64,000 nt of DNA. Source: an uncultured Nitrososphaerales archaeon (GTDB lineage: Archaea; Thermoproteota; Nitrososphaeria; Nitrososphaerales; Nitrososphaeraceae). Below the pieces are notes generated by a model, which was not told where the DNA came from, made no database searches, and saw only the letters and a program-made list of their open reading frames with translations. The stretch lies in assembly GCA_963695855.1 (NCBI GenBank), contig CAVOHZ010000002.1, positions 32,001 through 96,000 on the forward strand. The letters run 5' to 3'. Within the stretch, counting starts at the first letter, position 1. Each line of letters opens with the position of its first letter. Below are positions 4,753-62,174 of the stretch, one piece after another. The position numbers were made by a program, and so were the translations under genes.

Positions 4753-5765
4753 TGCCTTGTTGCACAACTTGTTCTTCTCAACACATTTAGCTAACCAATT
4801 CTAGTCATATTATGTGAACTGGAGAAATTACAACGAATCTCTTGTTAAACGTGGTGAGGTATTACTGGATTTTGATGTTATAGATAACTGGAATACTGAA
4901 CTAGAGAAGATGAATAAGGAAAAGGAAGGTAGGAAATTCGTATATCCAGATTCATTTGTCAAGTTATTGGGATACATGAGAGCATACTTTCACTTACCCT
5001 ACAGACAAACTGAAGGAGTAGTAAGAGAACATGCTTCAAACACTTTGCCATCAATTCCAGATTATAGTAACATTAGCAGAAGAATAAATAGACTGGATAT
5101 CAAGATTTCTGATGATATAACCAAATCTAACTTGCATGATGATAATTTTGTTATTGCAATTGATTCTACCGGTATAAAGGTATCTAAGAGGGGTGAATGG
5201 ATTAGACACAAGTGGAATGTAAAAAGAGGATATCTAAAGATACATTTAGCAGTCGATATAAAAAAGAAGAGAATTCTATCATTAGATGTTACTAGTGAAG
5301 AAGTACATGATGTAAAAGTACTTCCAAAATTGGTTGATTATATAGCAATAAAACAGAATAAGGTAATAGATACTGCTATCATGGATGGTTCCTATGATAG
5401 CAACAAGATCTTTCAGTTTCTATCATTTAAAGGCATACAACCAGCAATAAAGGTAAGAAAGAATTCTAGATGCAGAAACAAGACCAATCATTACCTTAGA
5501 AACAAGATGGTGAAAATGCAGAAGAATGATTTGCAAGAATGGAAAGATAGTGTACGCTATGGACAAAGATGGATGGTAGAATCTGTTTTTTCCTCTATGA
5601 AGAGAATGTTTGGTGAATATGTTACTGCTATCAGGTTAGAGAACATGATAAGAGAGATAATGTTGAAAGCATCGTTGTATAACTGGTTTCAAAGTATAAC
5701 TGTTACATAATTATCAATTATATAATAATGAGAACGATTGGTTAAACGAGTTATGCAACAAACCA
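4753..5765 (+). mobile_element. IS5-family (IS903-like) insertion sequence
   Basis: TIRs TGCCTTGTTGCACAACT / AGTTATGCAACAAACCA; 8-bp TSD ATAATAAT (4745-4752, 5766-5773). Confidence 0.88.
4814..5710 (+). CDS. IS5-family DDE transposase
   Basis: NWRNYNESLVKRG, IDSTGIK, KIHLAVD, DGSYD, RWMVESVFS. Confidence 0.92.
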   Translation: MNWRNYNESLVKRGEVLLDFDVIDNWNTELEKMNKEKEGRKFVYPDSFVKLLGYMRAYFHLPYRQTEGVVREHASNTLPSIPDYSNISRRINRLDIKISDDITKSNLHDDNFVIAIDSTGIKVSKRGEWIRHKWNVKRGYLKIHLAVDIKKKRILSLDVTSEEVHDVKVLPKLVDYIAIKQNKVIDTAIMDGSYDSNKIFQFLSFKGIQPAIKVRKNSRCRNKTNHYLRNKMVKMQKNDLQEWKDSVRYGQRWMVESVFSSMKRMFGEYVTAIRLENMIREIMLKASLYNWFQSITVT

Positions 5766-5779
5766 ATAATAATGATAAT

Positions 5780-6094
5780 GTAGATTCACGGTTTAATGAT
5801 CCTGCTTTCAATTACTTTAAGCAAAATGATTTTTGTATATTATGGAGTAAACAAAATACTCTGACTCCTGCGCTAGTGACTACAGATTTCGTGTAATTGA
5901 GATTGGTAGGAGATAGAAGTATTGATGACAAAAATTTTGGAACGATACAAAAAGATAGAAAATTGGAAATGCAAAAGTGGTCTAACATTTTAAATGATCT
6001 AAAGAATGATGAAGCAATCATAAAGAAAGCAATTGTATCTGCAAACGATCACTATGCTGGTTTTGGTCCTCTTACTGCTAGAATGTTGAGATGA
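5780..6094 (+). pseudogene. DUF72-family C-terminal remnant next to the IS
   Basis: TPALVTTDFV*LRLVGDRSID...ANDHYAGFGP with an internal stop. Confidence 0.65.
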
Positions 6095-37013: not shown

Positions 37014-37958
37014 GGCTCTGTAGAAACCATCATAGCTAGCAACATTCTACCATTAATTATTGAACAAACAACAATCAAAATATGTTAGATTAGCAGATCA
37101 ACTATTACGTATTCTCAAACATTGCAGAATTCCATTATATATGCATAGAAAGAGCAATCACATTTACACAGTATGGCAACACATAGTACTTGTTACAATA
37201 AGACAGTATGAAGGTAAGAGTTATCGAATGTTTACAGACTGGCTTGTTGAAGCATACTATTTGAGATTGTTTTTACAACTATCCAAAATACCACATTATA
37301 CAACATTACAGAAATTCACAGATAGAATCAACATCATGAAGCTTGGAAAGATAATATCATCTTTTATCTTATTCACAGGAACAAGACGCATATTTACTGG
37401 CATAGATTCGACTGGATTCAAAATAACATATGCGTCAGAATATTATACGAATAGAGCCAAATTGAGAAGGAAGAAATATGCTAAATTATCTATTGGTGCA
37501 GATGTTCTAAAACAGATATTCTGCAAGGTCAAGGTAAGACGAGCTCCAACAACAAGACATGACAATATGGATTTCAAACCTATTGTAACAAAAATATCAA
37601 AAATAAAACCATTATCGGTAGTTGTAGCGGATAAAGCATATGATAGCGAAGATAACCATGTACTTGTAAGAGAGAAACTACATGGATTCAGTATCATGCC
37701 TCCAAGATATGAACAAGTACCAGTATGGAAAACTCGTGGTAAATATAGAAAGGAGATGAAACGTGGATACAACAAGATTCTATACAATCAAAGAAACAAG
37801 GATGAAACTATGGTATCTGTCATAAAAAGACTGTTTGGGGAACATATCACATCCAAACTTGTGAGAATGCAAAATAGAGAATTGATATTCAGATGTATAG
37901 CATACAATACTCACAGAATGGTGAAGTTGGTTGTTATAGTAATGGTTTCTACACAGCC
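37014..37958 (+). mobile_element. IS5-family insertion sequence
   Basis: 17-bp TIRs GGCTCTGTAGAAACCAT / ATGGTTTCTACACAGCC; 7-bp TSD ATTTTGT. Confidence 0.9.
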
Positions 37959-37986
37959 ATTTTGTTTAATATTATATATATTATAA
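37060..37986 (+). CDS. IS5-family DDE transposase
   Basis: IPHYTTLQKF, GIDSTGF, ADKAYDSE, YNQRNKDET..S.IKRLFGE. Confidence 0.92.
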   Translation: MNKQQSKYVRLADQLLRILKHCRIPLYMHRKSNHIYTVWQHIVLVTIRQYEGKSYRMFTDWLVEAYYLRLFLQLSKIPHYTTLQKFTDRINIMKLGKIISSFILFTGTRRIFTGIDSTGFKITYASEYYTNRAKLRRKKYAKLSIGADVLKQIFCKVKVRRAPTTRHDNMDFKPIVTKISKIKPLSVVVADKAYDSEDNHVLVREKLHGFSIMPPRYEQVPVWKTRGKYRKEMKRGYNKILYNQRNKDETMVSVIKRLFGEHITSKLVRMQNRELIFRCIAYNTHRMVKLVVIVMVSTQPFCLILYIL

Positions 37987-38312: not shown

Positions 38313-39572
38313 TTAGCTAACATTTCTTACATATAGCATCTTTCTGCAGATGTGTCTTTATCACCAGTAAAGTATCCTTTACCTTGCCCATCACATAAAG
38401 TTGCTGGAGTTGCTCCAAGATTTTTAATTGTATTTGATACGTCTGAAGGAGACGCATTTGGATGTGATGAAAGGTAAAGTGCAACAGATCCGGTTACATA
38501 TGATGTAGCCATACTTGTTCCACTGAGTTGCAAAAGAATTCGATTTATAGGTAGAATTGATACTTACACCTGAAGCTGCTATATCTACTACATTGCCATA
38601 GTTACTAAATGATGCCAGCAAATCATCTTTACCATAATTAGAAGAAACTTCAGATGCACCACATTTGGTATCTGTATCTACAATCCCTGAAACTGCAATA
38701 ACATTGGGATGATTTGCAGGCGAAAACGAAGAAGCATCTTTGTCGTCATTTCCTGCCGCGACTACAAATGTAACATCAGCATTGACTGCTCCATTAATGG
38801 CCGTATTCAACGCAGATGATGTACATTGACAACCCAGGCTCAAATTAACAACTTCGACTTTACCTGCATTTGCAGTTACATAATCTATTGCTGAAATTAG
38901 AGATGATATTGAACCGGATCCACTGTCATCTAAAACCTTCAAAATTCCATAATCGTGTTCCAGGTGCTACCCCTACAACTCCAACAGTATTATCCTTTGC
39001 AGCTGCAGATCCAGCTACATGAGTTCCATGACGATTTTTATCAGTAGCAAGATATGAATTTCCGGTAAAGTCATTCTGTCTAAAAATATTCAAATCCTGG
39101 TGATTATATATTCCAGTGTCAAGTATTGCTATATCGGCATTGACCCATCCCAAGATTTAGTGAAACTTTGATCTGCATCTATTCTGTTTATACTCTTTGG
39201 TAATGTTTGAGCAAATGATTAAATCTTTTGATCCTGCTCTACGTACTTTACATTTGGATCTTGTCTTATTTTATTCAGTTCTTCTTAGGTATTAATTTTA
39301 ACGACTGACGCTTTAATGGAATTTTGAAAAATATTTAAAATATCATCTTTGAAGGTACTTGTTTCTATCCTTTTCACTATCTGCTTTATCATATAGTTGG
39401 GATTCTTGATATTCTCCCTGAAAACTACTATTGTCATCGTTGCCAGCAGAAGAAGGTGATGATGGTTATGATGATTGTGCATAGATCTCACTTGAAATCG
39501 ATGGGACTAAAAAAAATGCAAAATAACCCATTGACATTATAAAACAAACGAGACCTTTTTTACTTTTTTCAA
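38313..39572 (-). pseudogene. Secreted subtilisin-like (S8) protease, multiply frameshifted
   Basis: Fragments with ILDTG, HGTHVAG, AAGN, SGTSMA in different frames; prodomain remnant (DPNVKYVEQD). Confidence 0.88.
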
Positions 39573-41870: not shown

Positions 41871-42029
41871 AGATTTTAAGTTGCTCCTGTTTATCAACAA
41901 AAGAAATAACGTTCAGATCATTAGCATACTCGATATGCAATGAATCTTTAAAGCAGTTAGGCGGTTAAGGTTATCTGGATAGAAATTGATGAAGCATTAT
42001 TTGGTCTTCATAGAAAAGATGAAAAGAAA

Positions 42030-42470
42030 GATGGTACGTAGTTGAGTCCAGTTATATACATGTAATATGTTGCATTCATTTTGCAGACATGGATAATAGT
42101 CATCAAAATATTCTATTTTATCGTTGAAATACTGATTGACTCATTTCATTAGACTTTTCTAAGGAGAATGTAAATAGTGTTTCGATTCATTATGTTGCAT
42201 GCTTCATCATAGAATATACGTTCATCTGAATTTACAGTACTGTTTACATACCTTTGAATCATAGATCTAATGAATTTTTCAGTAACAAGTATTTCTGTCT
42301 TGCTAGATTTGTAAATTCAAAGCACATAACTATGAACTGATTCTATACAAAACCATAGATAAAAGTGCTGACGGCCAATTTGAATAAAAGTTTCATCTAT
42401 ATATAACGAAGGCTTCTACTCTATTCTGTTTATAAATTTGACAGGACCCAAACATTTGATCATATTAAAT
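42030..42470 (-). pseudogene. Degraded IS6-family transposase (paralogue of 61499-62167)
   Basis: Minus strand IDETFIQIGRQHFYLWFCIESVH...EKFIRS...QYFNDKIEYFDDYYPC...HVYNW with stops and frameshifts. Confidence 0.85.
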
Positions 42471-42932
42471 AGAGACACATAAATTATTTTTTTATCTTTA
42501 AAGGGTATTAAAGGGTATTAAAGTTTAGATGTATTACGTATACTTAATTCAAGAAAATATAGATAAAGAATACATTACATAAATAGAACGTTGTTAGATA
42601 TAGCTTTACTGGTTAACTTAAGAGCCTGTCTATAATGTTTTCTAGAGAGCCAAAGTTAGTTTATCTTTTTATAAAGAGAATATAAATTTTATAAATTAAA
42701 TCAAAAAATTATAAAACAAATCTTGTTTTATTTTTTGGAATTGGAAACAAATATGTAACTAGGAAGTAAACAAACTAAGTATTTATCTTCATGATTAGAA
42801 TATCTAAAATCTTATGTAGCAAATTAATATAACATTATCTGTACTTATCTTTAGCAATATTAATTGACAAGCATCATGTGATTGGTATATAACTTAAATT
42901 TTCAAAACTGGAATATGAAGAGACATACGTGA

Positions 42933-43004
42933 TACGGTCACCGGGATTTGAATTTGCCATATATGGGAATTCAGATATCTCGTATTTAGCTTTTTATTAG
43001 GAAA
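42933..43004 (-). repeat. Direct repeat left of the kdp locus with a tRNA-3'-like (att-like) segment
   Basis: Matches 50241-50302; minus strand TTCAAATCCCGGTGACCGTA. Confidence 0.6.
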
Positions 43005-43189
43005 TAGTTATTTAGATGCGACTAAAACAATATAGATTATATAGATTTTAAACTATTTTAGTATTACAATAAATTCAAAATAAATTTATCATTTTTATTT
43101 AGTTAATGTAAAAGAATTGTTCGATATCTTTAAATTAATCCTCACTGTAGCAAAATCCACAAAATCAAGGAATGAATTATGAATAAATA

Positions 43190-44851
43190 TTGGAACAAGA
43201 ACTGATAGAACTTTTAGTTCTGTTGGGAGGAACATTAGTTCTAGCAACTTTTTTTGGAACATATTTAGCTAGAATGATTTCCTATGAAAATAGACCAATA
43301 GAAAAGACACTTGCAATAGTTGAAAACAGATTTTATCGTCTAATAGGAATAGATGTAACTAAACAAATGACCTGGAAAGAGTACTTTTTTGCTCTTTTCA
43401 TAACAAACATGATTGTTGTAATAATGTTTACTTTAATATTTACTTTTCAAGACTACCTTCCTTACTCATCTAATGTAGACCGTTTACCTCTAGATTTTGC
43501 CTTTACTACTGCAATATCATTTATTACAGAAACTAGTCTCCAACACTATATTGGTGAACAACAGCTTTCAATAACGTCACAAATGGTTGCAATAACATTT
43601 ACATTTTTTGTAGTTCCTGCTTCAGGAATTGCTACTGCCTTCGCATTCATTCGTGCATTCATTCGAAAAAATTTTGGTCTTGGAAATTTCTATATTGATT
43701 TTACAAGAATAATTATTACCTTTCTTTTGCCTGTTGCATTTATATCATCACTACTTTTGATGGCAATGGGAGTTCCACAAATATTAGATTCATCAATATC
43801 GATAGACACGCTGGAATCTACAATAGAGAATAATTCTAGTAATACAAATAATAACAATAATAATGGTAAACAAACTATACCTTTAGGACCTGTAGCATCT
43901 CTAGAATCTATAAAATTGATGGGAAATAATGGAGGTGGTTTTTTTGGTGCCAATTCTGCTCATCCCTTTGAAAATCCTTCAGGCTTATCCAATATGTATG
44001 AAATGTTTCTAATGCTAATAATTCCTCTCTCCATTCCAATAGCATACGCAAAGTTAGTAGGTCTTGGAAGAGGATTATCTATTCTTGTAACAATGCTGAT
44101 TGGATTTGGTATCATATTGTCCTTATCTTTATCAGCAGAAAGTGGTCCTCAACTACTAGAAACACGATTTGATAGTTTTGGTAGTGTTTTGTTTAATCTT
44201 GTTTCATCTACAACAGGAACGGGTGCTCTTAATTCGGCATTGGCTGGAATGTCTTCCAATGCTGTTACTTCATTTTTTCTAGGAATGTTTGTTTCGGCAA
44301 TCCCAGGACCTGTTGGTGTAGGTTTTATAACTATGATAATTTACATCATCCTAACACTCTTTATGGTTGGCTTAATGGTAGGAAAGACACCAGAGTTTAT
44401 GAGCATGAAGATTAGCCCTCGAGATATTAAATTAGCTGTACTCATTTTCTTGATTCATCCTATTATTATATTGATACCTACCGTTATTGCATTTGCAACA
44501 GGAAATGCACAACAACTAGTTGGAGAGCAAGTAACTGCAATGGGATTTACTCAAACTCTATATGAATACACTACATCTGCATCAAATACTGGCTCAGATT
44601 ACTTTGGAACATCTGCTGATACTCCATTCTGGAACTGGTCTACCGTCATTGTTATGTTTCTTGGACGTTTTGTACCACTAGGATTAATGCTATATATTGC
44701 TGGGTCATTTACAATCAAAGATAGAAAAGAAGTAATAGAACCAATTAAAACTCATGGACCTTTGTTTATCTCTATACTAGTTGTCATGACATTTCTCTTA
44801 ACAGCACTAGAATTCTTCCCCTTTTTAGTAATGGGACCAATTTCTACTTAA
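43190..44851 (+). CDS. kdpA: K+-transporting ATPase subunit A, divergent-filter paralogue (kdpA1)
   Basis: GPVAS.ESIK, NGGGFFGANSAHPFENP, GLMVGKTPE, LGRF; filters TETSLQ/GNNG/GTGA/NTGS. Confidence 0.93.
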   Translation: MEQELIELLVLLGGTLVLATFFGTYLARMISYENRPIEKTLAIVENRFYRLIGIDVTKQMTWKEYFFALFITNMIVVIMFTLIFTFQDYLPYSSNVDRLPLDFAFTTAISFITETSLQHYIGEQQLSITSQMVAITFTFFVVPASGIATAFAFIRAFIRKNFGLGNFYIDFTRIIITFLLPVAFISSLLLMAMGVPQILDSSISIDTLESTIENNSSNTNNNNNNGKQTIPLGPVASLESIKLMGNNGGGFFGANSAHPFENPSGLSNMYEMFLMLIIPLSIPIAYAKLVGLGRGLSILVTMLIGFGIILSLSLSAESGPQLLETRFDSFGSVLFNLVSSTTGTGALNSALAGMSSNAVTSFFLGMFVSAIPGPVGVGFITMIIYIILTLFMVGLMVGKTPEFMSMKISPRDIKLAVLIFLIHPIIILIPTVIAFATGNAQQLVGEQVTAMGFTQTLYEYTTSASNTGSDYFGTSADTPFWNWSTVIVMFLGRFVPLGLMLYIAGSFTIKDRKEVIEPIKTHGPLFISILVVMTFLLTALEFFPFLVMGPIST

Positions 44852-44870
44852 ATAAAAAGGTGATAAAAAT

Positions 44871-44938
44871 ATGAGAAAATCAAAAAATAGTAACAAATTA
44901 AGATTTAGAAGGAAAATTAACCAATATGATAGTACCAT
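44871..44938 (+). pseudogene. Truncated duplicate of the kdpB 5' end
   Basis: TAAATAAAAAGGTGATAAAAATATG...ACAAATTAA as after kdpA2. Confidence 0.6.
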
Positions 44939-44982
44939 AGTTTTCACATTCATTACTTTCTCAGGTAGGTTATTATAAAATT

Positions 44983-45270
44983 ATGAATGAATCTGAAGTT
45001 GAAGTTAATTTAATGTGTCAAAACTGTCAACATAAAATGTCAATGCATTTACCTAACTGTACTGTATTATCAGATGAGAACTACTCAGCAAAAATTTGTA
45101 ATTGTAATAAGCCTCAATTTTATAATGTGATAATTTCTGGTACATATATAGGTTGGACTCAAATTCACTGTAACAGTTGTGGAAAATTATTAGCATTTAT
45201 TGATAGCATAAATGAAAATATTGATGATTTTAAAATAATGTGTAAACAGTGTATTATCCATAAGTGTTGA
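44983..45270 (+). CDS. Cys-rich zinc-finger protein (95 aa)
   Basis: CQNC.H, HLPNC, CNC, HCNSC, CKQC. Confidence 0.65.
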   Translation: MNESEVEVNLMCQNCQHKMSMHLPNCTVLSDENYSAKICNCNKPQFYNVIISGTYIGWTQIHCNSCGKLLAFIDSINENIDDFKIMCKQCIIHKC

Positions 45271-45608
45271 AGGAAATAAATATTTTAATTGCATAATTTT
45301 TTATTATTTACAAGATAATAGAATATTTTTTTATTTAAATCAAAGAATCATGCAAAGAAAAATAATAAAAGCCTAATAATTTAATCTTTTTAGCAAAATG
45401 TTAATATTTTACACTATAATTAATTCATATAAAGATAATCTAAAAATAGAGAATATATAGAATAAAATTGAGGATAATAGTAAAATAGTAAATTTATATA
45501 AATCTAATGTAACTATATAGATTGTTGTAGCCAGAGTTTCGGTATCTATAAATATCTCCAATAATGTAGGAACATCGACAAAATCAAGGAATGAATTATG
45601 AATAAATA

Positions 45609-47246
45609 TTGGAACAAGAACTGATAGAACTTATAGTTCTGTTGGGAGGAACATTAGTTCTAGCAACTTTTTTTGGAACATATTTAGCTAGAATGATTTC
45701 CTATGAAAATAGACCAATAGAAAAGACACTTGCAATAGTTGAAAACAGATTTTATCGTCTAATAGGAATAGATGTAAGTAAGCAAATGACCTGGAAAGAG
45801 TACTTTTTTGCTTTATTCCTGACCAATATGGTAGTTATGGTTGTTATATTTTTAATATTTACATTTCAAAATTATCTTCCGTCAGATACTCCTGTAGAAG
45901 GTTTTTCAATTGATTTAGCTGTTAATACGGCAGTTTCATTTATTACAAATACTAATATTCAACATTATGCTGGAGACCAACAACTTTCTATTCTTTCTCA
46001 GATGGTTGCATTAACTTTTACTATGTTTGTTGCACCAGCTTCTGCTATTGCTGCTGCTTTTGCTTTCATACGTTCTTTTATAAGAAAGAATTTTGGATTA
46101 GGTAATTTTTACATGGATTTTATAAGAGTTATTTTAACATTATTACTGCCAGTCTCATTTGTTTCTGCATTAATTCTTATGATTATGGGGGTTCCACAGA
46201 CACTAGACTCATCAATAACAATCAATCCATTAGAATCGACAATTAATAATAATAGTACAGCTGAACAACAAATAAATATTGGACCAGTTGCCTCTCTTGA
46301 GTCAATAAAAGAACTCGGTATGAACGGAGGTGGCTTTTTTGGATCAAACTCAGGCCATCCCTTTGAAAATCCTTCAGGCTTATCCAATATGTATGAAATG
46401 TTTCTAATTCTGGTAATTCCACTTGCATTTCCAATAGCACTTGCTAAATTAATAGGAAAAAGACGAGGAATCTCTATTCTTATAACAGTGCTGATTGGAT
46501 TTGGTGTATTGTTATCCTTATCATTCTCTACTGAGAGTGGTCCTCTCTTATTGGAGACTCGTTTCGGTAGTTTCGGTAGTGCATTATTTGATACTACATC
46601 TATAGCTACAAATACAGGTGCAGCAAATTCCGCATTGGCTGGAATGTCCTCCAATGCTGTTACTTCATTTTTCCTGGGAATGTTTATTCAGGCAATGCCA
46701 GGAGCACTAGGTATTGGAATAATGACTATTATAATCTACATACTTTTGACACTTTTTCTTGTTGGTTTAATGGTAGGAAAAACTCCAGAGTTTATGAGCA
46801 TGAAGATTAGCCCTCAAGATATTAAATTAGCTGTACTCATTTTCTTGAGTCATCCTATTCTTATATTGATACCTACCGTTATTGCATTTGCAACAGGAAA
46901 TGTTCAGGCACTGGTTGGAGAGCAAGTAACTGCAATGGGATTTACTCAAGCTCTATATGAATATACTTCTTCTGCAGCAAACAATGGCTCTGATTACTTT
47001 GGAACATCAGCTGATACTCCATTCTGGAATTGGTCTACCGCCATTGTTATGTTTCTTGGACGTTATGTACCACTAGGATTAATGCTATATATTGCTGGTT
47101 CATTTACAATCAAAGATAGAAAAGAAGTAATAGAACCAATTAAAACTCATGGACCTTTGTTTATTTCTGTATTGGCTGTAATGATATTTTTATTGGCTGG
47201 ATTAACTTTCTTTCCCTTTCTGATAATGGGACCAATTTCTATCTAA
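45609..47246 (+). CDS. kdpA: K+-transporting ATPase subunit A, more canonical paralogue (kdpA2)
   Basis: NTAVSFITNTNIQHY, KELGMNGGG, HPFENP, SAANNGS. Confidence 0.95.
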   Translation: MEQELIELIVLLGGTLVLATFFGTYLARMISYENRPIEKTLAIVENRFYRLIGIDVSKQMTWKEYFFALFLTNMVVMVVIFLIFTFQNYLPSDTPVEGFSIDLAVNTAVSFITNTNIQHYAGDQQLSILSQMVALTFTMFVAPASAIAAAFAFIRSFIRKNFGLGNFYMDFIRVILTLLLPVSFVSALILMIMGVPQTLDSSITINPLESTINNNSTAEQQINIGPVASLESIKELGMNGGGFFGSNSGHPFENPSGLSNMYEMFLILVIPLAFPIALAKLIGKRRGISILITVLIGFGVLLSLSFSTESGPLLLETRFGSFGSALFDTTSIATNTGAANSALAGMSSNAVTSFFLGMFIQAMPGALGIGIMTIIIYILLTLFLVGLMVGKTPEFMSMKISPQDIKLAVLIFLSHPILILIPTVIAFATGNVQALVGEQVTAMGFTQALYEYTSSAANNGSDYFGTSADTPFWNWSTAIVMFLGRYVPLGLMLYIAGSFTIKDRKEVIEPIKTHGPLFISVLAVMIFLLAGLTFFPFLIMGPISI

Positions 47247-47266
47247 ATAAAAAGGTGATAAAAAAT

Positions 47267-49558
47267 ATGAAAATGCAAATAAAAAACAAATTAAAAGATT
47301 TGGCAGAGACAATTAATCAATCTGACAATAACAATAAGAAGAATGGAAATAATAAAACATTTTTTAATAAACTAGCTAATACTATGAACAAAGCAATATT
47401 AGTAGATTCCATAAAGAAACTTAATCCTAAATACCTTGCAATAAATAATCCAGTAATGTTTACTGTAGAATTAGGTTTTTTTATAGTATTATTTATTGCA
47501 ATATTTCCTAACATTTCAGAAACATTTGTTAACCAAAACCAAATATTTTATATCGAATCTGCAATAATACTGATACTTACTGTATGGTTTGCAACATTTT
47601 CTGAATCTTTATCAGAATCTCAAGCAAAGGCAAGAGTTGATTCTCTTAGAAGTTTGGAAAAAGAAGTAACTGCCCACAAATTAGTCCATGGAAAAGAGAG
47701 TCGCGTTACATCATCAAGTTTAAAACCAGGTGATGAAGTTCGAGTATATGCTGGCGAAATTATACCTAGAGATGGATTAGTTATTGAAGGTAAAACATTT
47801 GTTGATGAGTCAATGATGACAGGAGAGAGTAATCCAATATTCAAAGAAAAAGATGACCATGTAATAGGTGGAACAAGGGTTACATCAGACAACATAGTAG
47901 TAGAAATAACTGCTGAGGCTGGAAGAAGTTTTCTTGACGAGATGGTCGGTATGATAAAGAATGCAACAAGACCAAAGACTCAAAATGAGATTGCTCTAAC
48001 AATCTTGTTAGCAGGATTATCACTTATCTTCATAACAATAATAGGAACATTACTATTTTTAGGTCATTTTCTAGGGTACAAAACAGACATTGCATCTTTA
48101 GTTGCACTTTTAGTTGCTCTAATGCCTACTACCATTGGAGCTTTACTTCCTGCTATTGGTGTTGCTGGTATTACAAGAATAGGAAGAGATAACATCATAG
48201 CAAAATCCGGAAAAGGAATTGAAGCTGCTGGTGATTGTGACGTACTGATACTAGATAAAACAGGGACCATTACAGAGGGCAGTAGAAGAGCAATTTCTTT
48301 TATACCAATGCAGGAATATACAGAAGAAGATATAGGACAGATAGCATTTGCAGCATCTATTCATGATACAACTCATGAAGGAAAATCGATAGTTGATTTA
48401 GCTGAAGAAAAAAAGTATTTGCCTCCTTTGCTAGAACAAATAATAACTGCAAAACCAATAGATTTCTCTGCTGAAACAAGAGTAAGTGGACTTGAATTTA
48501 TTTTACATAAACAAAGAATTAATTTGAATAAAGAACAAGAAGAAGAATTTAGAGATATAGCAAAAACAGTACAAGATAAAACTCGTATACAGGATTCTTT
48601 ATCAGTAGACACGATAGAAAAAGCTATTGATGAATCAAGCAAAAGCAAAATACACGATATACTATTGCATTTAACACAATCAGGTAAACCAATTAGAATC
48701 CTAAAAGGAGCTGTGAATGTCCTCTTAGAAAGAGCTAATCTACAAACTAATAAAGCCGAAATCAAGTGGAAGGCCCAGGAGATATCCAAACAAGGTGCTA
48801 CACCTATAGCAGTATCACTCAACGATGAAATAATAGGTTTAATAGTTCTAAAAGATAATCTAAAAGAAAACATCAGAGAAAACCTTGCAGAAGTTCATGC
48901 TACAGGTATAAGTACAATTATGATTACAGGTGACAACAGACTAACAGCTGAAGTAATTGCTAAAGAAGCAAACGTTAATGAGGTAATGGCAGAAGCAAAA
49001 CCTACTGATAAATTAACGAGAGTAATAGAAGAGCAACAAAAAGGACATATAATAGGTATGGTAGGTGATGGAGCAAATGACGCACCTGCGCTTGCAAAAG
49101 CAGATATTGGGTTGGCAATGAATAGTGGAACTGCTGCTGCTAAGGAAGCAGCCAACATGGTTGACCTGGATTCAGACCCATCAAATATACTAAAAGTTGT
49201 AAAACTTGGAAAGCAATTGCTGATGACCAGAGGAGTTATAACTACATTTAGTATAGCCAATGATGTTGCTAAATATTTTGCAATATTACCAGCAATGTTT
49301 ATGGAAAATAATCCTACAATAGCCGCACTCAATATAATGCAATTACACAGTCCTCAAACTGCAATACTATCGACTTTAATATTTAATGCCATTATCATAC
49401 CAGGACTTATTCCTATTTCATTAAAAGGAATCAAATTCAAGGCAGAATCACTAGAAAAAATATTTGTAAAGAATCTCGTTGTATATGGAATAGGTGGAGC
49501 AGTATTGCCTTTTGTTGGAATTAAGGTAATCGATATTCTGCTATCTCTTTTTATTTAA
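47267..49558 (+). CDS. kdpB: K+-transporting P-type ATPase subunit B
   Basis: NPVMF, TGES, PTTIG, DKTGT, GDGANDAPALA, SIANDVAKYF; ATG 47267 after SD AGGTGA. Confidence 0.97.
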   Translation: MKMQIKNKLKDLAETINQSDNNNKKNGNNKTFFNKLANTMNKAILVDSIKKLNPKYLAINNPVMFTVELGFFIVLFIAIFPNISETFVNQNQIFYIESAIILILTVWFATFSESLSESQAKARVDSLRSLEKEVTAHKLVHGKESRVTSSSLKPGDEVRVYAGEIIPRDGLVIEGKTFVDESMMTGESNPIFKEKDDHVIGGTRVTSDNIVVEITAEAGRSFLDEMVGMIKNATRPKTQNEIALTILLAGLSLIFITIIGTLLFLGHFLGYKTDIASLVALLVALMPTTIGALLPAIGVAGITRIGRDNIIAKSGKGIEAAGDCDVLILDKTGTITEGSRRAISFIPMQEYTEEDIGQIAFAASIHDTTHEGKSIVDLAEEKKYLPPLLEQIITAKPIDFSAETRVSGLEFILHKQRINLNKEQEEEFRDIAKTVQDKTRIQDSLSVDTIEKAIDESSKSKIHDILLHLTQSGKPIRILKGAVNVLLERANLQTNKAEIKWKAQEISKQGATPIAVSLNDEIIGLIVLKDNLKENIRENLAEVHATGISTIMITGDNRLTAEVIAKEANVNEVMAEAKPTDKLTRVIEEQQKGHIIGMVGDGANDAPALAKADIGLAMNSGTAAAKEAANMVDLDSDPSNILKVVKLGKQLLMTRGVITTFSIANDVAKYFAILPAMFMENNPTIAALNIMQLHSPQTAILSTLIFNAIIIPGLIPISLKGIKFKAESLEKIFVKNLVVYGIGGAVLPFVGIKVIDILLSLFI

Positions 49559-49583
49559 TAATGGAGGAGATTGAGAAAAATAA

Positions 49584-50120
49584 ATGATAAATAATAATAA
49601 CAATAATAACAATAATAATAAAACACGAATTAGAAATTTCCTTTCAAATAATTTACCTCCATCAATTAGAATAGTCATACTGATGATGCTTGTAACAGGA
49701 ATTGCATATCCTATTTCACTTGTATTTATTGGAGAAATAGCTCTGCCATATCAATCCCATGGAAGTCAAATCATTTGGAATGACAAAGTTATAGGCTCTG
49801 AACTCATAGCTCAAGAATTTACGTCCCCAAAGTTCTTTCATAGTAGGCCAGCAACTGATTCAGCTTCTACAGTAGACCCACATATAACACCTGAATCTGC
49901 ATATCAACAAATATCAAATGTAAGTAAAGCTACAAGCATTCCAGAAAATGCATTGAAAACTATAATTGACCTTAATATAGAAAGAAATAAGGTAAGTAAT
50001 TTAATCGTGTTCGCTCCAAATTATGTGAATGTACTGGAAGTAAATTTAGAATTGGTAAAACAGTATCCTGAAAGCTATTACACAAAAACAGAATTAGAAC
50101 AAAATACATTTATGTCCTAG
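49584..50120 (+). CDS. kdpC: K+-transporting ATPase subunit C
   Basis: TGIAYP, Q.HGS, GSELIAQEF..PKFFHSRP, DPHIT, VNVLEVN. Confidence 0.93.
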   Translation: MINNNNNNNNNNKTRIRNFLSNNLPPSIRIVILMMLVTGIAYPISLVFIGEIALPYQSHGSQIIWNDKVIGSELIAQEFTSPKFFHSRPATDSASTVDPHITPESAYQQISNVSKATSIPENALKTIIDLNIERNKVSNLIVFAPNYVNVLEVNLELVKQYPESYYTKTELEQNTFMS

Positions 50121-50132
50121 GTGGTGATATAG

Positions 50133-50219
50133 TTGGAAGTAATAGTCTATACTTTTATTTCATTTCTTGTAATATCTTCAATATTCTTATGTTATAGCTT
50201 TATTGAGGCAAAAAAATAA
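50133..50219 (+). CDS. KdpF-like single-TM microprotein (28 aa; absent from ORF track)
   Basis: TTG-start MEVIVYTFISFLVISSIFLCYSFIEAKK, SD GGTGGTGA directly after the kdpC stop. Confidence 0.55.
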   Translation: MEVIVYTFISFLVISSIFLCYSFIEAKK

Positions 50220-50240
50220 ATACAAATATTACATGTAATT

Positions 50241-50302
50241 ACCAGGATTTAAATTTCCATATGGAAATTGACATATCTTGTATTTAGCTTTTTATTAGGA
50301 AA
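50241..50302 (-). repeat. Degenerate direct repeat right of the kdp locus
   Basis: ACCAGGATTTAAATTT...TATTTAGCTTTTTATTAGGAAA matches 42940-43004. Confidence 0.65.
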
Positions 50303-50361
50303 CCATAAGTCTTCTCAGGACCTGTGTCATTGATTTCAGCTTTAATCTTGAATTGTTATGA

Positions 50362-50481
50362 GTTCAACAGACACTTGATTCATCAATAACAATCACTCCC
50401 TTAGAATCTACAATTAATAACGGCAATAATACAACAACAGTAAGAGAACAGACAACAACGATAGGACCTGTTGCCTCTTTA
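50362..50481 (+). pseudogene. Internal fragment of a third kdpA
   Basis: QTLDSSITITPLESTINNGNNTTTVREQTTTIGPVASL, homologous to the kdpA loop before pore 2. Confidence 0.8.
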
Positions 50482-50574
50482 TAATAAATTTTTAAGCATA
50501 TTGGTGAAGTAAATGCAAGACAGATAAAAAAAGTAAATTTACAATTAAAAAGATGATTATATAGGACAGCTTGT

Positions 50575-51696
50575 TTACATACCACCGCCACCGTTCATTG
50601 ACATACCACCACCACCGTTCATTGACATATTCATTGAATTAGAACCCATCATAGAACCAGTATTGGTAGCATTTTTAGAGGGAGAAAGAGTGAATGTCAT
50701 TTCGTTTTTCACATTTTGATTATTTTTACTAATACTAGTACCATCATCATTCTGTACTATTTTCTGAGCAATATTCAGAATATCAGGTTTTGTTAACATG
50801 ACATGAACTATGTCTTTAGAGGAATTTGTTCTATCTACCATTATTGATTTAGGAGACAAATCAATATTATTGATAGTACCTGTATATCCGTTGGCAGCTA
50901 AAGGACTAGGATTTGGAATGGATAATTCCTCGTGAACATACACAGTCACTTTTTTTAACCTGTCAAGATTCCAATCAAAAGGCATTGCAAATTTTAATTC
51001 ATTATTAGGAGAATCATAGTTGAAATTATTTAATTCGTCATAATATGAAATTGCTTGTATTGGATAAGATGTTCCGTTAATTTCAATATTCTTATCTATT
51101 GAATAACCTACACTAAGCCAGCCTTCATACACAGGCTGTTTATCTGTTGGAAGCATGGTTGTGTCAAAATCAAGTGTTACTATAGTGACAATAAAGTGAT
51201 ATAGTCCTCCCTCGGCAAATATTGGACCTGTTGCAGATACAAGATGTTCCATATCGCCAGTATAAGCTCCCATAATAGGGTCTTGTTCCCCATATATTAT
51301 AATGTGATCAGCACTAGAAGGTTTCATCTGTATTCCTAGATTGCCTGTATGAGAATGAAAAGTATCTAATAATAGACGCTTTCCACTTTTTTCAATCTCT
51401 ATTAGATATGTTACATGGTTTATACTTTTATTAGTAGCTTTATCATCTAGTTTGAATTGAATTAAAGGATTTTGACCACCTTTTAAAGTCTCTGTTGTAA
51501 CTACAGGAGGCCACATCTTTATCAATAGTGAAAGGTCCCTTCCAGCCACGGATGCTGATAATTCTTCCATAAACAAACCATCTCCAAATATGGGAATAGA
51601 TGGAAATGAGATAGTAACAAATAGCAGAGGAAGAATAGCAAATAAAATAGAGATTATAAATCTATTAGTTTTCATAATGGTAGTAATAATAATCAT
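50575..51696 (-). CDS. Secreted protein with Met/Gly-rich C-terminal tail
   Basis: Signal peptide, DGLF.E.L, HSHTG, SYYD...F.MPFDW, HEE; tail GSMMGSNSMNMSMNGGGGMSMNGGGGM. Confidence 0.8.
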   Translation of the reverse strand: MIIITTIMKTNRFIISILFAILPLLFVTISFPSIPIFGDGLFMEELSASVAGRDLSLLIKMWPPVVTTETLKGGQNPLIQFKLDDKATNKSINHVTYLIEIEKSGKRLLLDTFHSHTGNLGIQMKPSSADHIIIYGEQDPIMGAYTGDMEHLVSATGPIFAEGGLYHFIVTIVTLDFDTTMLPTDKQPVYEGWLSVGYSIDKNIEINGTSYPIQAISYYDELNNFNYDSPNNELKFAMPFDWNLDRLKKVTVYVHEELSIPNPSPLAANGYTGTINNIDLSPKSIMVDRTNSSKDIVHVMLTKPDILNIAQKIVQNDDGTSISKNNQNVKNEMTFTLSPSKNATNTGSMMGSNSMNMSMNGGGGMSMNGGGGM

Positions 51697-61440: not shown

Positions 61441-62174
61441 GGTGCTGTTAACTTAAGGAAAGAGCTATATCTGTGAACGCTCTATTCTAACAATATAGAT
61501 GTTGTTAAGATTTGTCAGAAATAGAACATCCACATGTATAGTAATGCATTCTCTTTATTTGTACTTTCTTGGTCTCAGTCTACGAAATACATCCAAAGCA
61601 TTGGAACCTTTTAAGGACCAAAAAAGAAGTTATGTTGCTGTTTGGAAATGGATTCAACGGTTTGGTTCATTGTTGCAGATCTATAACAAGCATAGAAGAA
61701 TTTCCGCATTCATAATCGATGAGACAATGATTCAGATTGGTAATCAACATTTTTGGTTATGGATTTGTATTGAACCTGTTCATAAATCTATACTTGGGAT
61801 CTATATTTCAGAAGAGAGAAACATGCTTGTAGCAGAAAATTTTATCAGATCGCTTGTATCAAGGTATGGAAAACATACTGTATACACAGATGATGGTGGT
61901 GGTACGTGGTATCCACAAGCATGCAACTTTTTAAATCTAAAACACGTATCGCATTCACCATTTGAGAAAAGTCTGATAGAAAGAGTGATGCAGTATTTCA
62001 AGGATAGGACAGAATGTTTTGATGATTGCTATCCTTGTAATAATAATATACAAAATTGTCATCTACAACATGTATACAATTGGATAAGATTATTCGTTTA
62101 TCTATATAATGCAAAAATTAGAAACAAAATTCTATTCAAAATTGGAGATGAAATAGTGTTAAGTTAACACAGTC
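61441..62174 (+). mobile_element. IS6-family insertion sequence
   Basis: Ends GGTGCTGTTAACTTAA / TTAAGTTAACACAGTC; flanking GATAAT direct repeat. Confidence 0.85.
61499..62167 (+). CDS. IS6-family (DDE, IS240-like) transposase
   Basis: [43 protein letters not shown]. Confidence 0.9.

Follow-up and report, generated by a model that had tools for sequence, protein, structure and literature searches.

Tandem kdpA paralogues with different selectivity filters beside a single kdpB and kdpC in a Nitrososphaeraceae archaeon: a candidate alternative channel-like subunit for one Kdp motor

The stretch of DNA analysed here (the window, 64,000 nucleotides (nt) of contig CAVOHZ010000002.1, positions 32,001 to 96,000 of the forward strand, assembly GCA_963695855.1) comes from a Nitrososphaeraceae archaeon and carries a locus for the Kdp pump. 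The locus encodes two intact copies of KdpA, the channel-like, K+-selecting subunit, and only one copy each of KdpB and KdpC. The two copies, KdpA1 and KdpA2 (genes kdpA1 and kdpA2; A1 and A2 for short), differ in their selectivity filters. We favour, with modest confidence, the explanation that KdpA1 is an alternative subunit through which the one KdpBC acquires a second setting of its kinetics or selectivity, K+ being the likeliest ion. The Kdp system itself is known, and it is the presence of tandem kdpA paralogues on one motor that is new: no description of such an arrangement was found in the literature searched, and the passages of Nitrosocosmicus papers that mention kdp only record the presence of Kdp.

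The genome (G000) is 3.55 Mb long in 11 contigs and 99.87% complete, and the close relatives of its KdpA proteins carry source names of Nitrososphaeraceae or Candidatus Nitrosocosmicus. It is compared throughout with a sister genome, G010. The genes of the locus are the following.

43190..44851, + strand: kdpA1, 553 amino acids (aa), variant channel-like subunit (Pfam KdpA PF03814, E 1.1e-156)
44983..45270, + strand: small Cys-rich open reading frame (ORF) of 95 aa between kdpA1 and kdpA2, with several CxxC pairs
45609..47246, + strand: kdpA2, 545 aa, near-canonical subunit with an odd Met in the second pore loop, P2 (GMNGGG; Pfam KdpA, E 2.1e-167)
47255..49558, + strand: kdpB, 767 aa, the single KdpB of the genome (Pfam E1-E2_ATPase and Hydrolase)
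49584..50120, + strand: kdpC, 178 aa, the single KdpC of the genome (Pfam KdpC, E 1.1e-35)

The first-pass annotation of this DNA, made from its letters and ORFs, had described two intact kdpA genes (553 and 545 aa) with a single kdpB and kdpC. This is borne out by the ORFs, by Pfam and by a search of the whole genome, which returned exactly two KdpA matches, one KdpC ORF and one KdpB, the other P-type ATPases giving only partial matches to KdpB at 26-37% identity. On the Pfam KdpA profile (548 positions), KdpA1 spans positions 4-545 with a bit score of 522.7 and KdpA2 positions 3-544 with 558.1, for a cut-off of 22.6. The two proteins are identical at 429 of 552 positions (78%). kdpA1 precedes kdpA2-kdpB-kdpC by 757 nt on the same strand, with its own copy of a putative promoter and with one ORF between. 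The span given in the annotation, 43190-50219, starts correctly and overshoots the end of kdpC by about 100 nt.

To place the filter residues we aligned KdpA1 with HMMER to chain 6hra_A of the Protein Data Bank (PDB), the KdpA of Escherichia coli. Residues 14-552 of KdpA1 align end to end with residues 15-553 of the E. coli protein (E = 9.8e-83), which gives the following equivalences for the first three of the four pore loops (P1 to P4).

43526..43543, + strand: P1 filter codons, TETSLQ in KdpA1, TNTNIQ in KdpA2, TNTNWQ in E. coli (T111-N112-T113-N114-W115-Q116); E114, S116, L117 and Q118 of KdpA1 correspond to N112, N114, W115 and Q116
43922..43939, + strand: P2 filter codons, GNNGGG in KdpA1, GMNGGG in KdpA2, GTNGGG in E. 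coli (G229-T230-N231-G232-G233-G234); N246 and G248 correspond to T230 and G232
44213..44227, + strand: P3 filter codons, TGTGA in KdpA1 for ASCGA in E. coli; within them GTGA in KdpA1, NTGA in KdpA2 and SCGA in E. coli (S343-C344-G345-A346), G343, T344 and G345 corresponding to S343, C344 and G345

In P4, KdpA1 has NTGS, and KdpA2 has NNGS as E. coli does (N466-N467-G468-S469), so that N466, T467 and G468 of KdpA1 stand for N466, N467 and G468. The motifs quoted in the annotation for the two proteins are all present in the translations, and the E. coli motifs that it cited (TNTNWQ, GTNGG, SCGA and NNGS) agree with the 6hra_A alignment. Relative to E. coli KdpFABC (PDB 5mrw and 6hra), with which the locus shares its Pfam families and the gene order A-B-C, there are thus two KdpA genes per one KdpB and KdpC, and KdpA1 differs at the positions of N112, N114, W115, T230, S343, C344 and N467. 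We identified no kdpF or kdpDE, for which no systematic search was made. The residues that KdpA1 retains are G248, G345, G468, Q118 and R493, equivalent to G232, G345, G468, Q116 and R493 of E. coli; in a 50-row family alignment, G248 and G468 never vary and G345 hardly does. The equivalents of Q116, G232 and R493, where mutations are known to matter according to PMC12629597, are kept in both KdpA1 and KdpA2. Positions are given below in E. coli numbering where they are named by the E. coli residue.

The rarity of the KdpA1 filter was assessed in two sets of proteins. In the set of close relatives (the best 120 hits, aligned, with the window's own two proteins among them), the A1 signature of TETS, GTGA and NTGS is found only in KdpA1 and in two intact proteins from metagenomes, P0007 (551 aa, 89% identical to KdpA1) and P0008 (547 aa, 88%). 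It is in none of the 118 other rows, which represent 117 distinct proteins because KdpA2 was entered twice (as A2 and as P0020), and it is also fixed in the surviving parts of a broken A1-type copy in G010. Among these 118 relatives the N112 position holds D (95), N (16) or G (7), the N114 position N (91) or D (27), and the S343 and N467 positions hold N without exception (118/118). The family-wide set was built from the best 150 representatives of 50%-identity clusters, of which 126 were kept (500-660 aa) and 24 were dropped by length. In these 126 the N112 position is N in 105 and never D or E; the N114 position is N in 79, D in 30 and S in 3; the T230 position is T in 65, S in 33, N in 10 and never M; the S343 position is S in 71, G in 16 and N in 6; and the N467 position is N in 119 and T in 3. 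R493 is R in 119 of the 126, as it is in KdpA1 and KdpA2. Judged by these counts, KdpA1 is unusual at N112, N114 and N467, ordinary at S343 on the scale of the family though unique there among its close kin, and ordinary in P2. The canonical side chains N112, N114 and N467 are not present in KdpA1, which has E, S and T in their place, and we read this as a deviation inside the KdpA family that does not exclude the protein from it.

These comparisons redistribute the differences that the first-pass annotation had assigned to KdpA1. All four loops do differ between the two proteins, but they are not all novelties of KdpA1: GNNGGG also occurs in the single-copy congeners G018 and G006 and is the ordinary form in the genus, and the odd residue in P2 is the Met of KdpA2 (residue 238, at the T230 position), found in KdpA2 and its 7-row clade and in none of the 126 representatives. 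The T230 position sits at the bottom of the filter in the solved pump. By the absence of Met from the 126, the 'canonical' KdpA2 is unusual itself. Likewise, the Glu in the last transmembrane helix (ALEFFP in KdpA1, GLTFFP in KdpA2) is present as described but is not diagnostic, being Ser in the A1-type P0008 and Glu in the canonical P0009.

The changes in P1 and P4 appear to belong together. In the family-wide set (n = 124 representatives for this comparison), loss of N/D at N114 accompanies loss of N at N467 in 4 of the 7 representatives lacking N467 vs 11 of the 117 that have it (Fisher P = 0.004, with no phylogenetic correction), and the four with the paired loss (P0130, P0174, P0213 and P0241) are only 30-40% identical to each other. 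This suggests a coupling between residues of the P1 and P4 loops, and the existence of an alternative type of KdpA filter that recurs. By the same alignments, S116 and T467 of KdpA1 form one more instance of the recurrent paired change, which fits coordinated remodelling rather than decay. The archaeal protein P0130 of genome G405 resembles KdpA1 in this, with a small residue at N114 and Thr at N467 (TNTGLQ ... SNTGM). It differs from KdpA1 in being only 41% identical to it, in being the sole KdpA found in its genome (E <= 1e-60) and in lying directly before kdpB. The question raised by the annotation, of how common TETS/NTGS filters are, thus has a two-part answer: the signature is rare, but an S/T-type pairing of P1 and P4 also occurs in a single-copy KdpA.

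A separate peculiarity concerns the vestibule of the channel. Asp stands at the N112 position in 95 of the 118 Nitrososphaeraceae-type relatives vs an acidic residue in none of the 126 wider representatives, and the relatives examined have Gln at the position of the vestibule residue Glu370; KdpA2 also has Gln there, and KdpA1 has Ser. Asp at the one position and Gln at the other look like a relocated negative charge.

The A1 type forms an old lineage. In a tree of the unconverted centre of kdpA (58 rows, 317 columns, LG+G4, quick search), the window KdpA1, P0007, P0008 and the G010 copy form a clade with a support of 100 in the Shimodaira-Hasegawa-like approximate likelihood ratio test (SH-aLRT) and a stem of 0.16. 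This clade falls outside the clade of 44 canonical genus-group sequences (support 96), within which the A2 clade (7 rows, stem 0.098) is nested. It follows that the gene was duplicated before the sampled canonical genes diversified. The G010 member, on contig C316, is 85% identical to KdpA1 and 69% to KdpA2, and shares the motifs TETSLQ, GNNGGG and TTGTGA with KdpA1.

We then compared nonsynonymous (dN) and synonymous (dS) divergence and their ratio (omega) between G000 and G010. The A1-type pair (329 codons) has a dN of 0.073 and a dS of 0.378, hence an omega of 0.19 by NG86 and 0.12 by YN00. These values are close to those of kdpB (0.17 and 0.11) and kdpC (0.22 and 0.08) in the same genomes; canonical kdpA pairs have 0.13-0.14 and 0.07-0.10. 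They are far from the ratio near 1 that the first-pass annotation had named as evidence against a function. The divergence pattern indicates that KdpA1 is an old, maintained and derived paralogue under purifying selection and no decaying copy.

The changes that define the lineage are concentrated in the pore loops P1, P3 and P4. At 22 positions the three intact A1-type proteins share a residue that none of the 118 relatives has. When pore-loop segments are defined as the filter Gly -12 to +2 of each repeat (60 of 553 residues), they take in eight of these positions (106, 114, 116, 337, 340, 343, 462 and 467) for 2.4 expected, a hypergeometric P of 0.0011 that is only indicative because the segments were chosen after the data had been seen. 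The same reserve applies to the unconverted centre alone (residues 70-390), where 6 of 20 diagnostic sites lie in pore-loop segments (P = 0.045). At the filter positions themselves, the diagnostic changes are N114 to S, N to G at the S343 position and N467 to T. Of the earlier proposal that KdpA1 has acquired a new function, a derived, maintained and filter-focused change thus holds, and its extension to NH4+ finds no support, as discussed below.

The sequence of kdpA1 is a mosaic in its relation to kdpA2, with converted ends, a divergent centre and a divergent island inside the 3' tract.

43150..43390, + strand: 5' gene-conversion tract, about 98-100% identical to kdpA2 at the nt level (sliding identity)
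44370..44790, + strand: 3' gene-conversion tract, residues ~394-533, 90-98% nt identity to kdpA2, dS 0.197
44555..44596, + strand: P4 island of retained A1-type differences inside the 3' tract (SNTGS, with T467 for E. coli N467)

The 5' tract includes about 40 nt upstream of kdpA1 and has a dS of 0.045, with four differing codons in residues 1-70. The centre (43400-44370) has about 70% nt identity to kdpA2 and a dS of 1.2, a saturated value, NG86 having been used for the central comparisons of the two genes; the last 60 nt of kdpA1 are again only about 72% identical. The island stands out sharply from the tract around it, with 7 differing codons among the 14 of residues 456-469, none at 444-455 and two synonymous ones at 470-485. 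The A1 state is kept in it at sites 456, 462, 463, 465 and 467. Elsewhere, among the sites that separate A1-type orthologues from A2-clade proteins, the window KdpA1 has the A2 state at six (29, 425, 436, 495, 497 and 502), and KdpA2 has the A1 state at site 463 only, so that conversion has run mainly from kdpA2 into kdpA1.

The 3' tract coincides in part with the surface that faces the motor. According to Stock et al. (PMC6255902), R400 and Q513 of E. coli KdpA contact the P domain of KdpB, and I421 and L422 are also among the contacts with KdpB. By the 6hra_A alignment, the equivalents of these four residues fall within the 3' tract, those of F386 and L389 at its edge, and those of V538 and L541 just beyond it. 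Homogenisation of the motor-contact part, together with a filter that is kept different, would be the pattern expected if two subunits must fit one motor.

The two genes also seem to share their transcription signal, in the form of a conserved block that precedes each of them.

43120..43189, + strand: promoter/leader copy 1, TATA-like TTTAAAT and then a conserved leader to the TTG start of kdpA1
45538..45608, + strand: promoter/leader copy 2, before kdpA2-kdpB-kdpC

The block of about 70 nt consists of GATATCTTTAAAT and a leader ending in ...AAAATCAAGGAATGAATTNTGA(A/G)TAAATA before the TTG start. It is found upstream of kdpA in 7 of 7 aligned loci from five genomes (A1, A2, G018, G006, G019 and the A1-type and A2-type copies of G010), and is better conserved than many parts of the coding sequence. 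We read it as a candidate archaeal kdp promoter or operator acting at the level of DNA. If this putative promoter is one, kdpA1 would be transcribed alone, and the signal that induces it would probably be that of kdpA2BC. An RNA element in the leader was considered and rejected: Rfam gave no match at E <= 1 over 42000-50600, and RNAalifold found no pairs and no consensus fold in the block.

Sequencing read runs provide some further information, stretches without cover carrying no weight in them. A soil metatranscriptome (X20) contains one 192-nt contig that lies on 43462-43653 with 15 differences (92% identity), is A1-specific and spans P1, as well as kdpA2 and kdpB pieces at about 90% identity. 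This gives a weak hint that the A1-type gene of a relative is transcribed, and no more than that because such libraries may contain DNA. A DNA run of a related strain (X3) has both A1-type and A2-type pieces. In that run, a 391-nt contig joins kdpA1 to kdpA2 at homologous codons (44046|46442) and may be a natural A1/A2 hybrid gene or a switch of the assembler between paralogues. Runs X1 and X2 contain identical pieces; they possibly derive from the source sample and were counted as non-independent.

A KdpA1 that works with the common motor is consistent with structural prediction and with the published behaviour of filter mutants. The model of a KdpA1-KdpC complex scored 0.86 (best of three controls 0.00), above a threshold that 58 of 80 solved complexes passed, as did 2 of 110 mismatched pairs, with at least 96% of contacts agreeing between runs and a predicted local distance difference test (pLDDT) value of at least 80 for the partner, a score that may reflect likeness to a known complex because E. 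coli KdpFABC is solved. PMC6255902 and PMC12629597 describe KdpFABC structures in which the KdpA pore is sealed on the cytoplasmic side and ions leave through a tunnel into KdpB. According to PMC12629597, KdpB is relatively promiscuous, the substitutions Q116R and G232D in E. coli KdpA alter affinity while coupling to KdpB persists, and G232D leads to coupled transport of Rb+ and NH4+. These mutants support the statement of the first-pass annotation that filter substitutions change affinity and ion discrimination. KdpA1 may be a natural counterpart of them, but it retains G232 and Q116 and is changed at other filter positions, for which the literature searched held no measured effects.

Duplicated kdpA genes are not in themselves peculiar to this genome, but they are organised differently elsewhere. 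Four Nitrososphaeraceae genomes (G068, G100, G098 and G218) have two kdpA genes, each with its own kdpB, which makes them duplicates of whole operons. In these, kdpA and kdpB are immediate neighbours in G068, G218, G100 and one of the G098 operons; G100:C15 and G098:C1 hold broken copies. The layout of the present genome differs in that kdpA alone is doubled; its two paralogues differ in the filter. Among the genomes of the family that were compared, G000 and, with a broken copy, G010 are the only ones in which just the channel subunit is doubled and has a filter specific to the lineage.

These results can be arranged into a provisional mechanism. kdpA1 is an old paralogue of the channel-like, K+-selecting subunit, known from a small group of Nitrososphaeraceae and placed in tandem before kdpA2-kdpB-kdpC. 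Made under the same signal, KdpA1 and KdpA2 would compete for the single KdpB and KdpC, and the outcome would be two forms of the pump, KdpA1BC and KdpA2BC. The forms may differ in cation affinity, in discrimination between K+, Rb+ and NH4+, or in both, with K+ still the likeliest substrate of each. Gene conversion of the part that contacts KdpB would keep both subunits fit for one motor, and selection would guard the differences in the filter.

A number of observations weigh against such a role for KdpA1, and some of them are what one would find if the gene were a redundant duplicate with no distinct role, partly refreshed from kdpA2 and heading for loss, a reading that we regard as doubtful. 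The A1 type is rare and dispensable: all searches yielded only four sequences, any KdpA was found in 6 of the 25 genus genomes searched, the A1 type only in G000 and G010, and the remaining 19 genomes gave no match to KdpA1. A scan of metagenome contigs of the Joint Genome Institute with KdpA1 gave, among the 80 kept of 142 confirmed loci, a best identity of 78% to A1 and none above 84% to A2; the scan yielded no more DNA of the A1 type or of the A2 clade, and P0007 and P0008 were used as proteins only. The G010 A1-type copy is a pseudogene, with a frameshift at residue 53/54, two in-frame stops and an end after residue 388, downstream of which come sequence related to insertion sequences (IS) and then transposase ORFs. 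The A2-type copy of G010 also has several frameshifts, but adjoins an intact kdpB (767 aa, 95% identical) and an intact kdpC (91%). Generally poor sequence quality in G010 is unlikely because these two genes are open and so similar to those of G000; a mis-assembly of two similar paralogues may have occurred. Some of the changes in the filter may be mild: Glu at N112 is a conservative step from the Asp of 95 of the 118 relatives, Gly at S343 is shared with 16 of the 126 representatives, a small/hydroxyl pairing at N114 and N467 recurs in 4 of 124, and Thr at N467, rare as it is (3/126), occurs in the sole KdpA of G405, in a kdpAB operon. The placement of the conversion tracts may be due to chance, and the reserves stated above on the pore-loop P values and on the X20 contig count on the same side. 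The surroundings of the locus, among IS remnants, and the A1|A2 joint of X3, which could be a recombinant collapsing the pair (or an artefact of assembly), would also suit a redundant copy. Such a copy does not fit well with the omega of the A1-type pair, which is not above that of kdpB and kdpC, though one partner is now broken; with three intact copies, 88-100% identical, that share every filter change; with stem changes that strike positions invariant in 118 relatives; or with differences in P4 that outlive the conversion around them.

We consider it unlikely that KdpA1BC differs from KdpA2BC in ion preference, be it as an ATP-driven importer of NH4+ or another non-K+ ion or as a K+ pump hardened against NH4+, and an importer of NH4+ (or of Rb+, Cs+ or Na+) taken by itself is slightly less likely again. 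The mutant G232D speaks for the importer, in that one filter change coupled NH4+ and Rb+ through an unchanged KdpB (PMC12629597), and so do the rare residues of KdpA1 (E at N112 in 0/126, S at N114 in 3/126, T at N467 in 3/126) in an organism that the naming of closely related proteins marks as an ammonia oxidiser. All filter glycines are nevertheless intact, the equivalent of G232 included, and the same kind of pairing, S/G with T/S, exists in G405. There it makes up the filter of the only KdpA, so that this type is compatible with an only Kdp subunit, which lowers the odds that KdpA1 has left K+. The first-pass annotation had presented NH4+ uptake as attractive but unproven, and we found no support for it: no nitrogen gene stands among the Pfam-annotated neighbours of the kdp locus, and an Amt transporter is encoded elsewhere in the genome. 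Paying one ATP for each NH4+ would also bring little gain to an organism that draws its energy from ammonia oxidation.

It is less probable still that KdpA1 acts without KdpB, as a free-standing channel or uptake protein of the SKT type like KtrB or TrkH. kdpA1 does have its own copy of the putative promoter, lies 757 nt and one ORF away from kdpA2BC, and has its G010 counterpart directly downstream of a CBS-TrkH-like gene and not beside kdpB. Against this, the KdpA pore stays sealed to the cytoplasm in the KdpFABC structures described in PMC6255902 and PMC12629597, the ions leaving by way of KdpB; the part of KdpA1 that would touch KdpB is the part kept nearly identical to KdpA2; and the interface with KdpC is modelled with confidence, within the limit given above.

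The kdp locus is embedded in IS material, with a DDE_Tnp_1 transposase ORF and remnants of the IS240 family in the window, and with IS material also at both kdpA loci of G010 (sites at 37060-37986, 42047-42586 and 61446-62111 in the window, 5136-5843 in G010 locus L055 and 4667-5889 in L056). One of these sites lies shortly before kdpA1.

42047..42586, strand not assigned: degraded IS240-family element upstream of kdpA1, from blastn of G010 locus L055

This element is related to the copy at 61446-62111 and to the IS abutting kdpA2 in G010; in blastn, L055 matches the window at 72.7% over 550 nt and at 75.3% over 668 nt, and ORF P0276 of G010 matches DDE_Tnp_IS240 (E 6.4e-10). The nearest flanking ORFs with a Pfam domain encode a winged-helix protein, CopD, HemD and an Lrp/TRASH regulator, and two further flanking ORFs had no significant Pfam match. 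At 38317-39153 on the - strand, overlapping short ORFs in different frames look, by eye and from their motifs, like one broken protease-like gene. The only TrkH match of G000 is about 65 kb away (G000:C2:8615-9922). The 95-aa Cys-rich ORF between the two kdpA genes had no match in a Pfam search, has a paralogue with 57% identity at G000:C10:86424-86780 and is absent from the corresponding contig of G010; it is probably a real small gene, and a link to the pump is only putative.

To our knowledge, no pump other than Kdp combines a channel-like subunit that picks the ion with a P-type ATPase that powers its transport. Laboratory mutants show that ion choice and energy supply are separable, and a natural pair of KdpA proteins on one motor would be nature's version of that experiment. 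If KdpA1BC does differ from KdpA2BC in ion preference, the cell would alter the substrate profile of one P-type ATPase by exchanging its channel subunit. A filter kept apart by selection and a motor contact kept alike by gene conversion would single out the positions of N112, N114, S343, N467 and T230 as candidate sites that set affinity or selectivity. In soil ammonia oxidisers, the pair would allow K+ homeostasis to be tuned, and perhaps NH4+ homeostasis as well; a K+ pump protected from competition by NH4+, if KdpA1BC is one, would suit an ammonia oxidiser at high ammonium.

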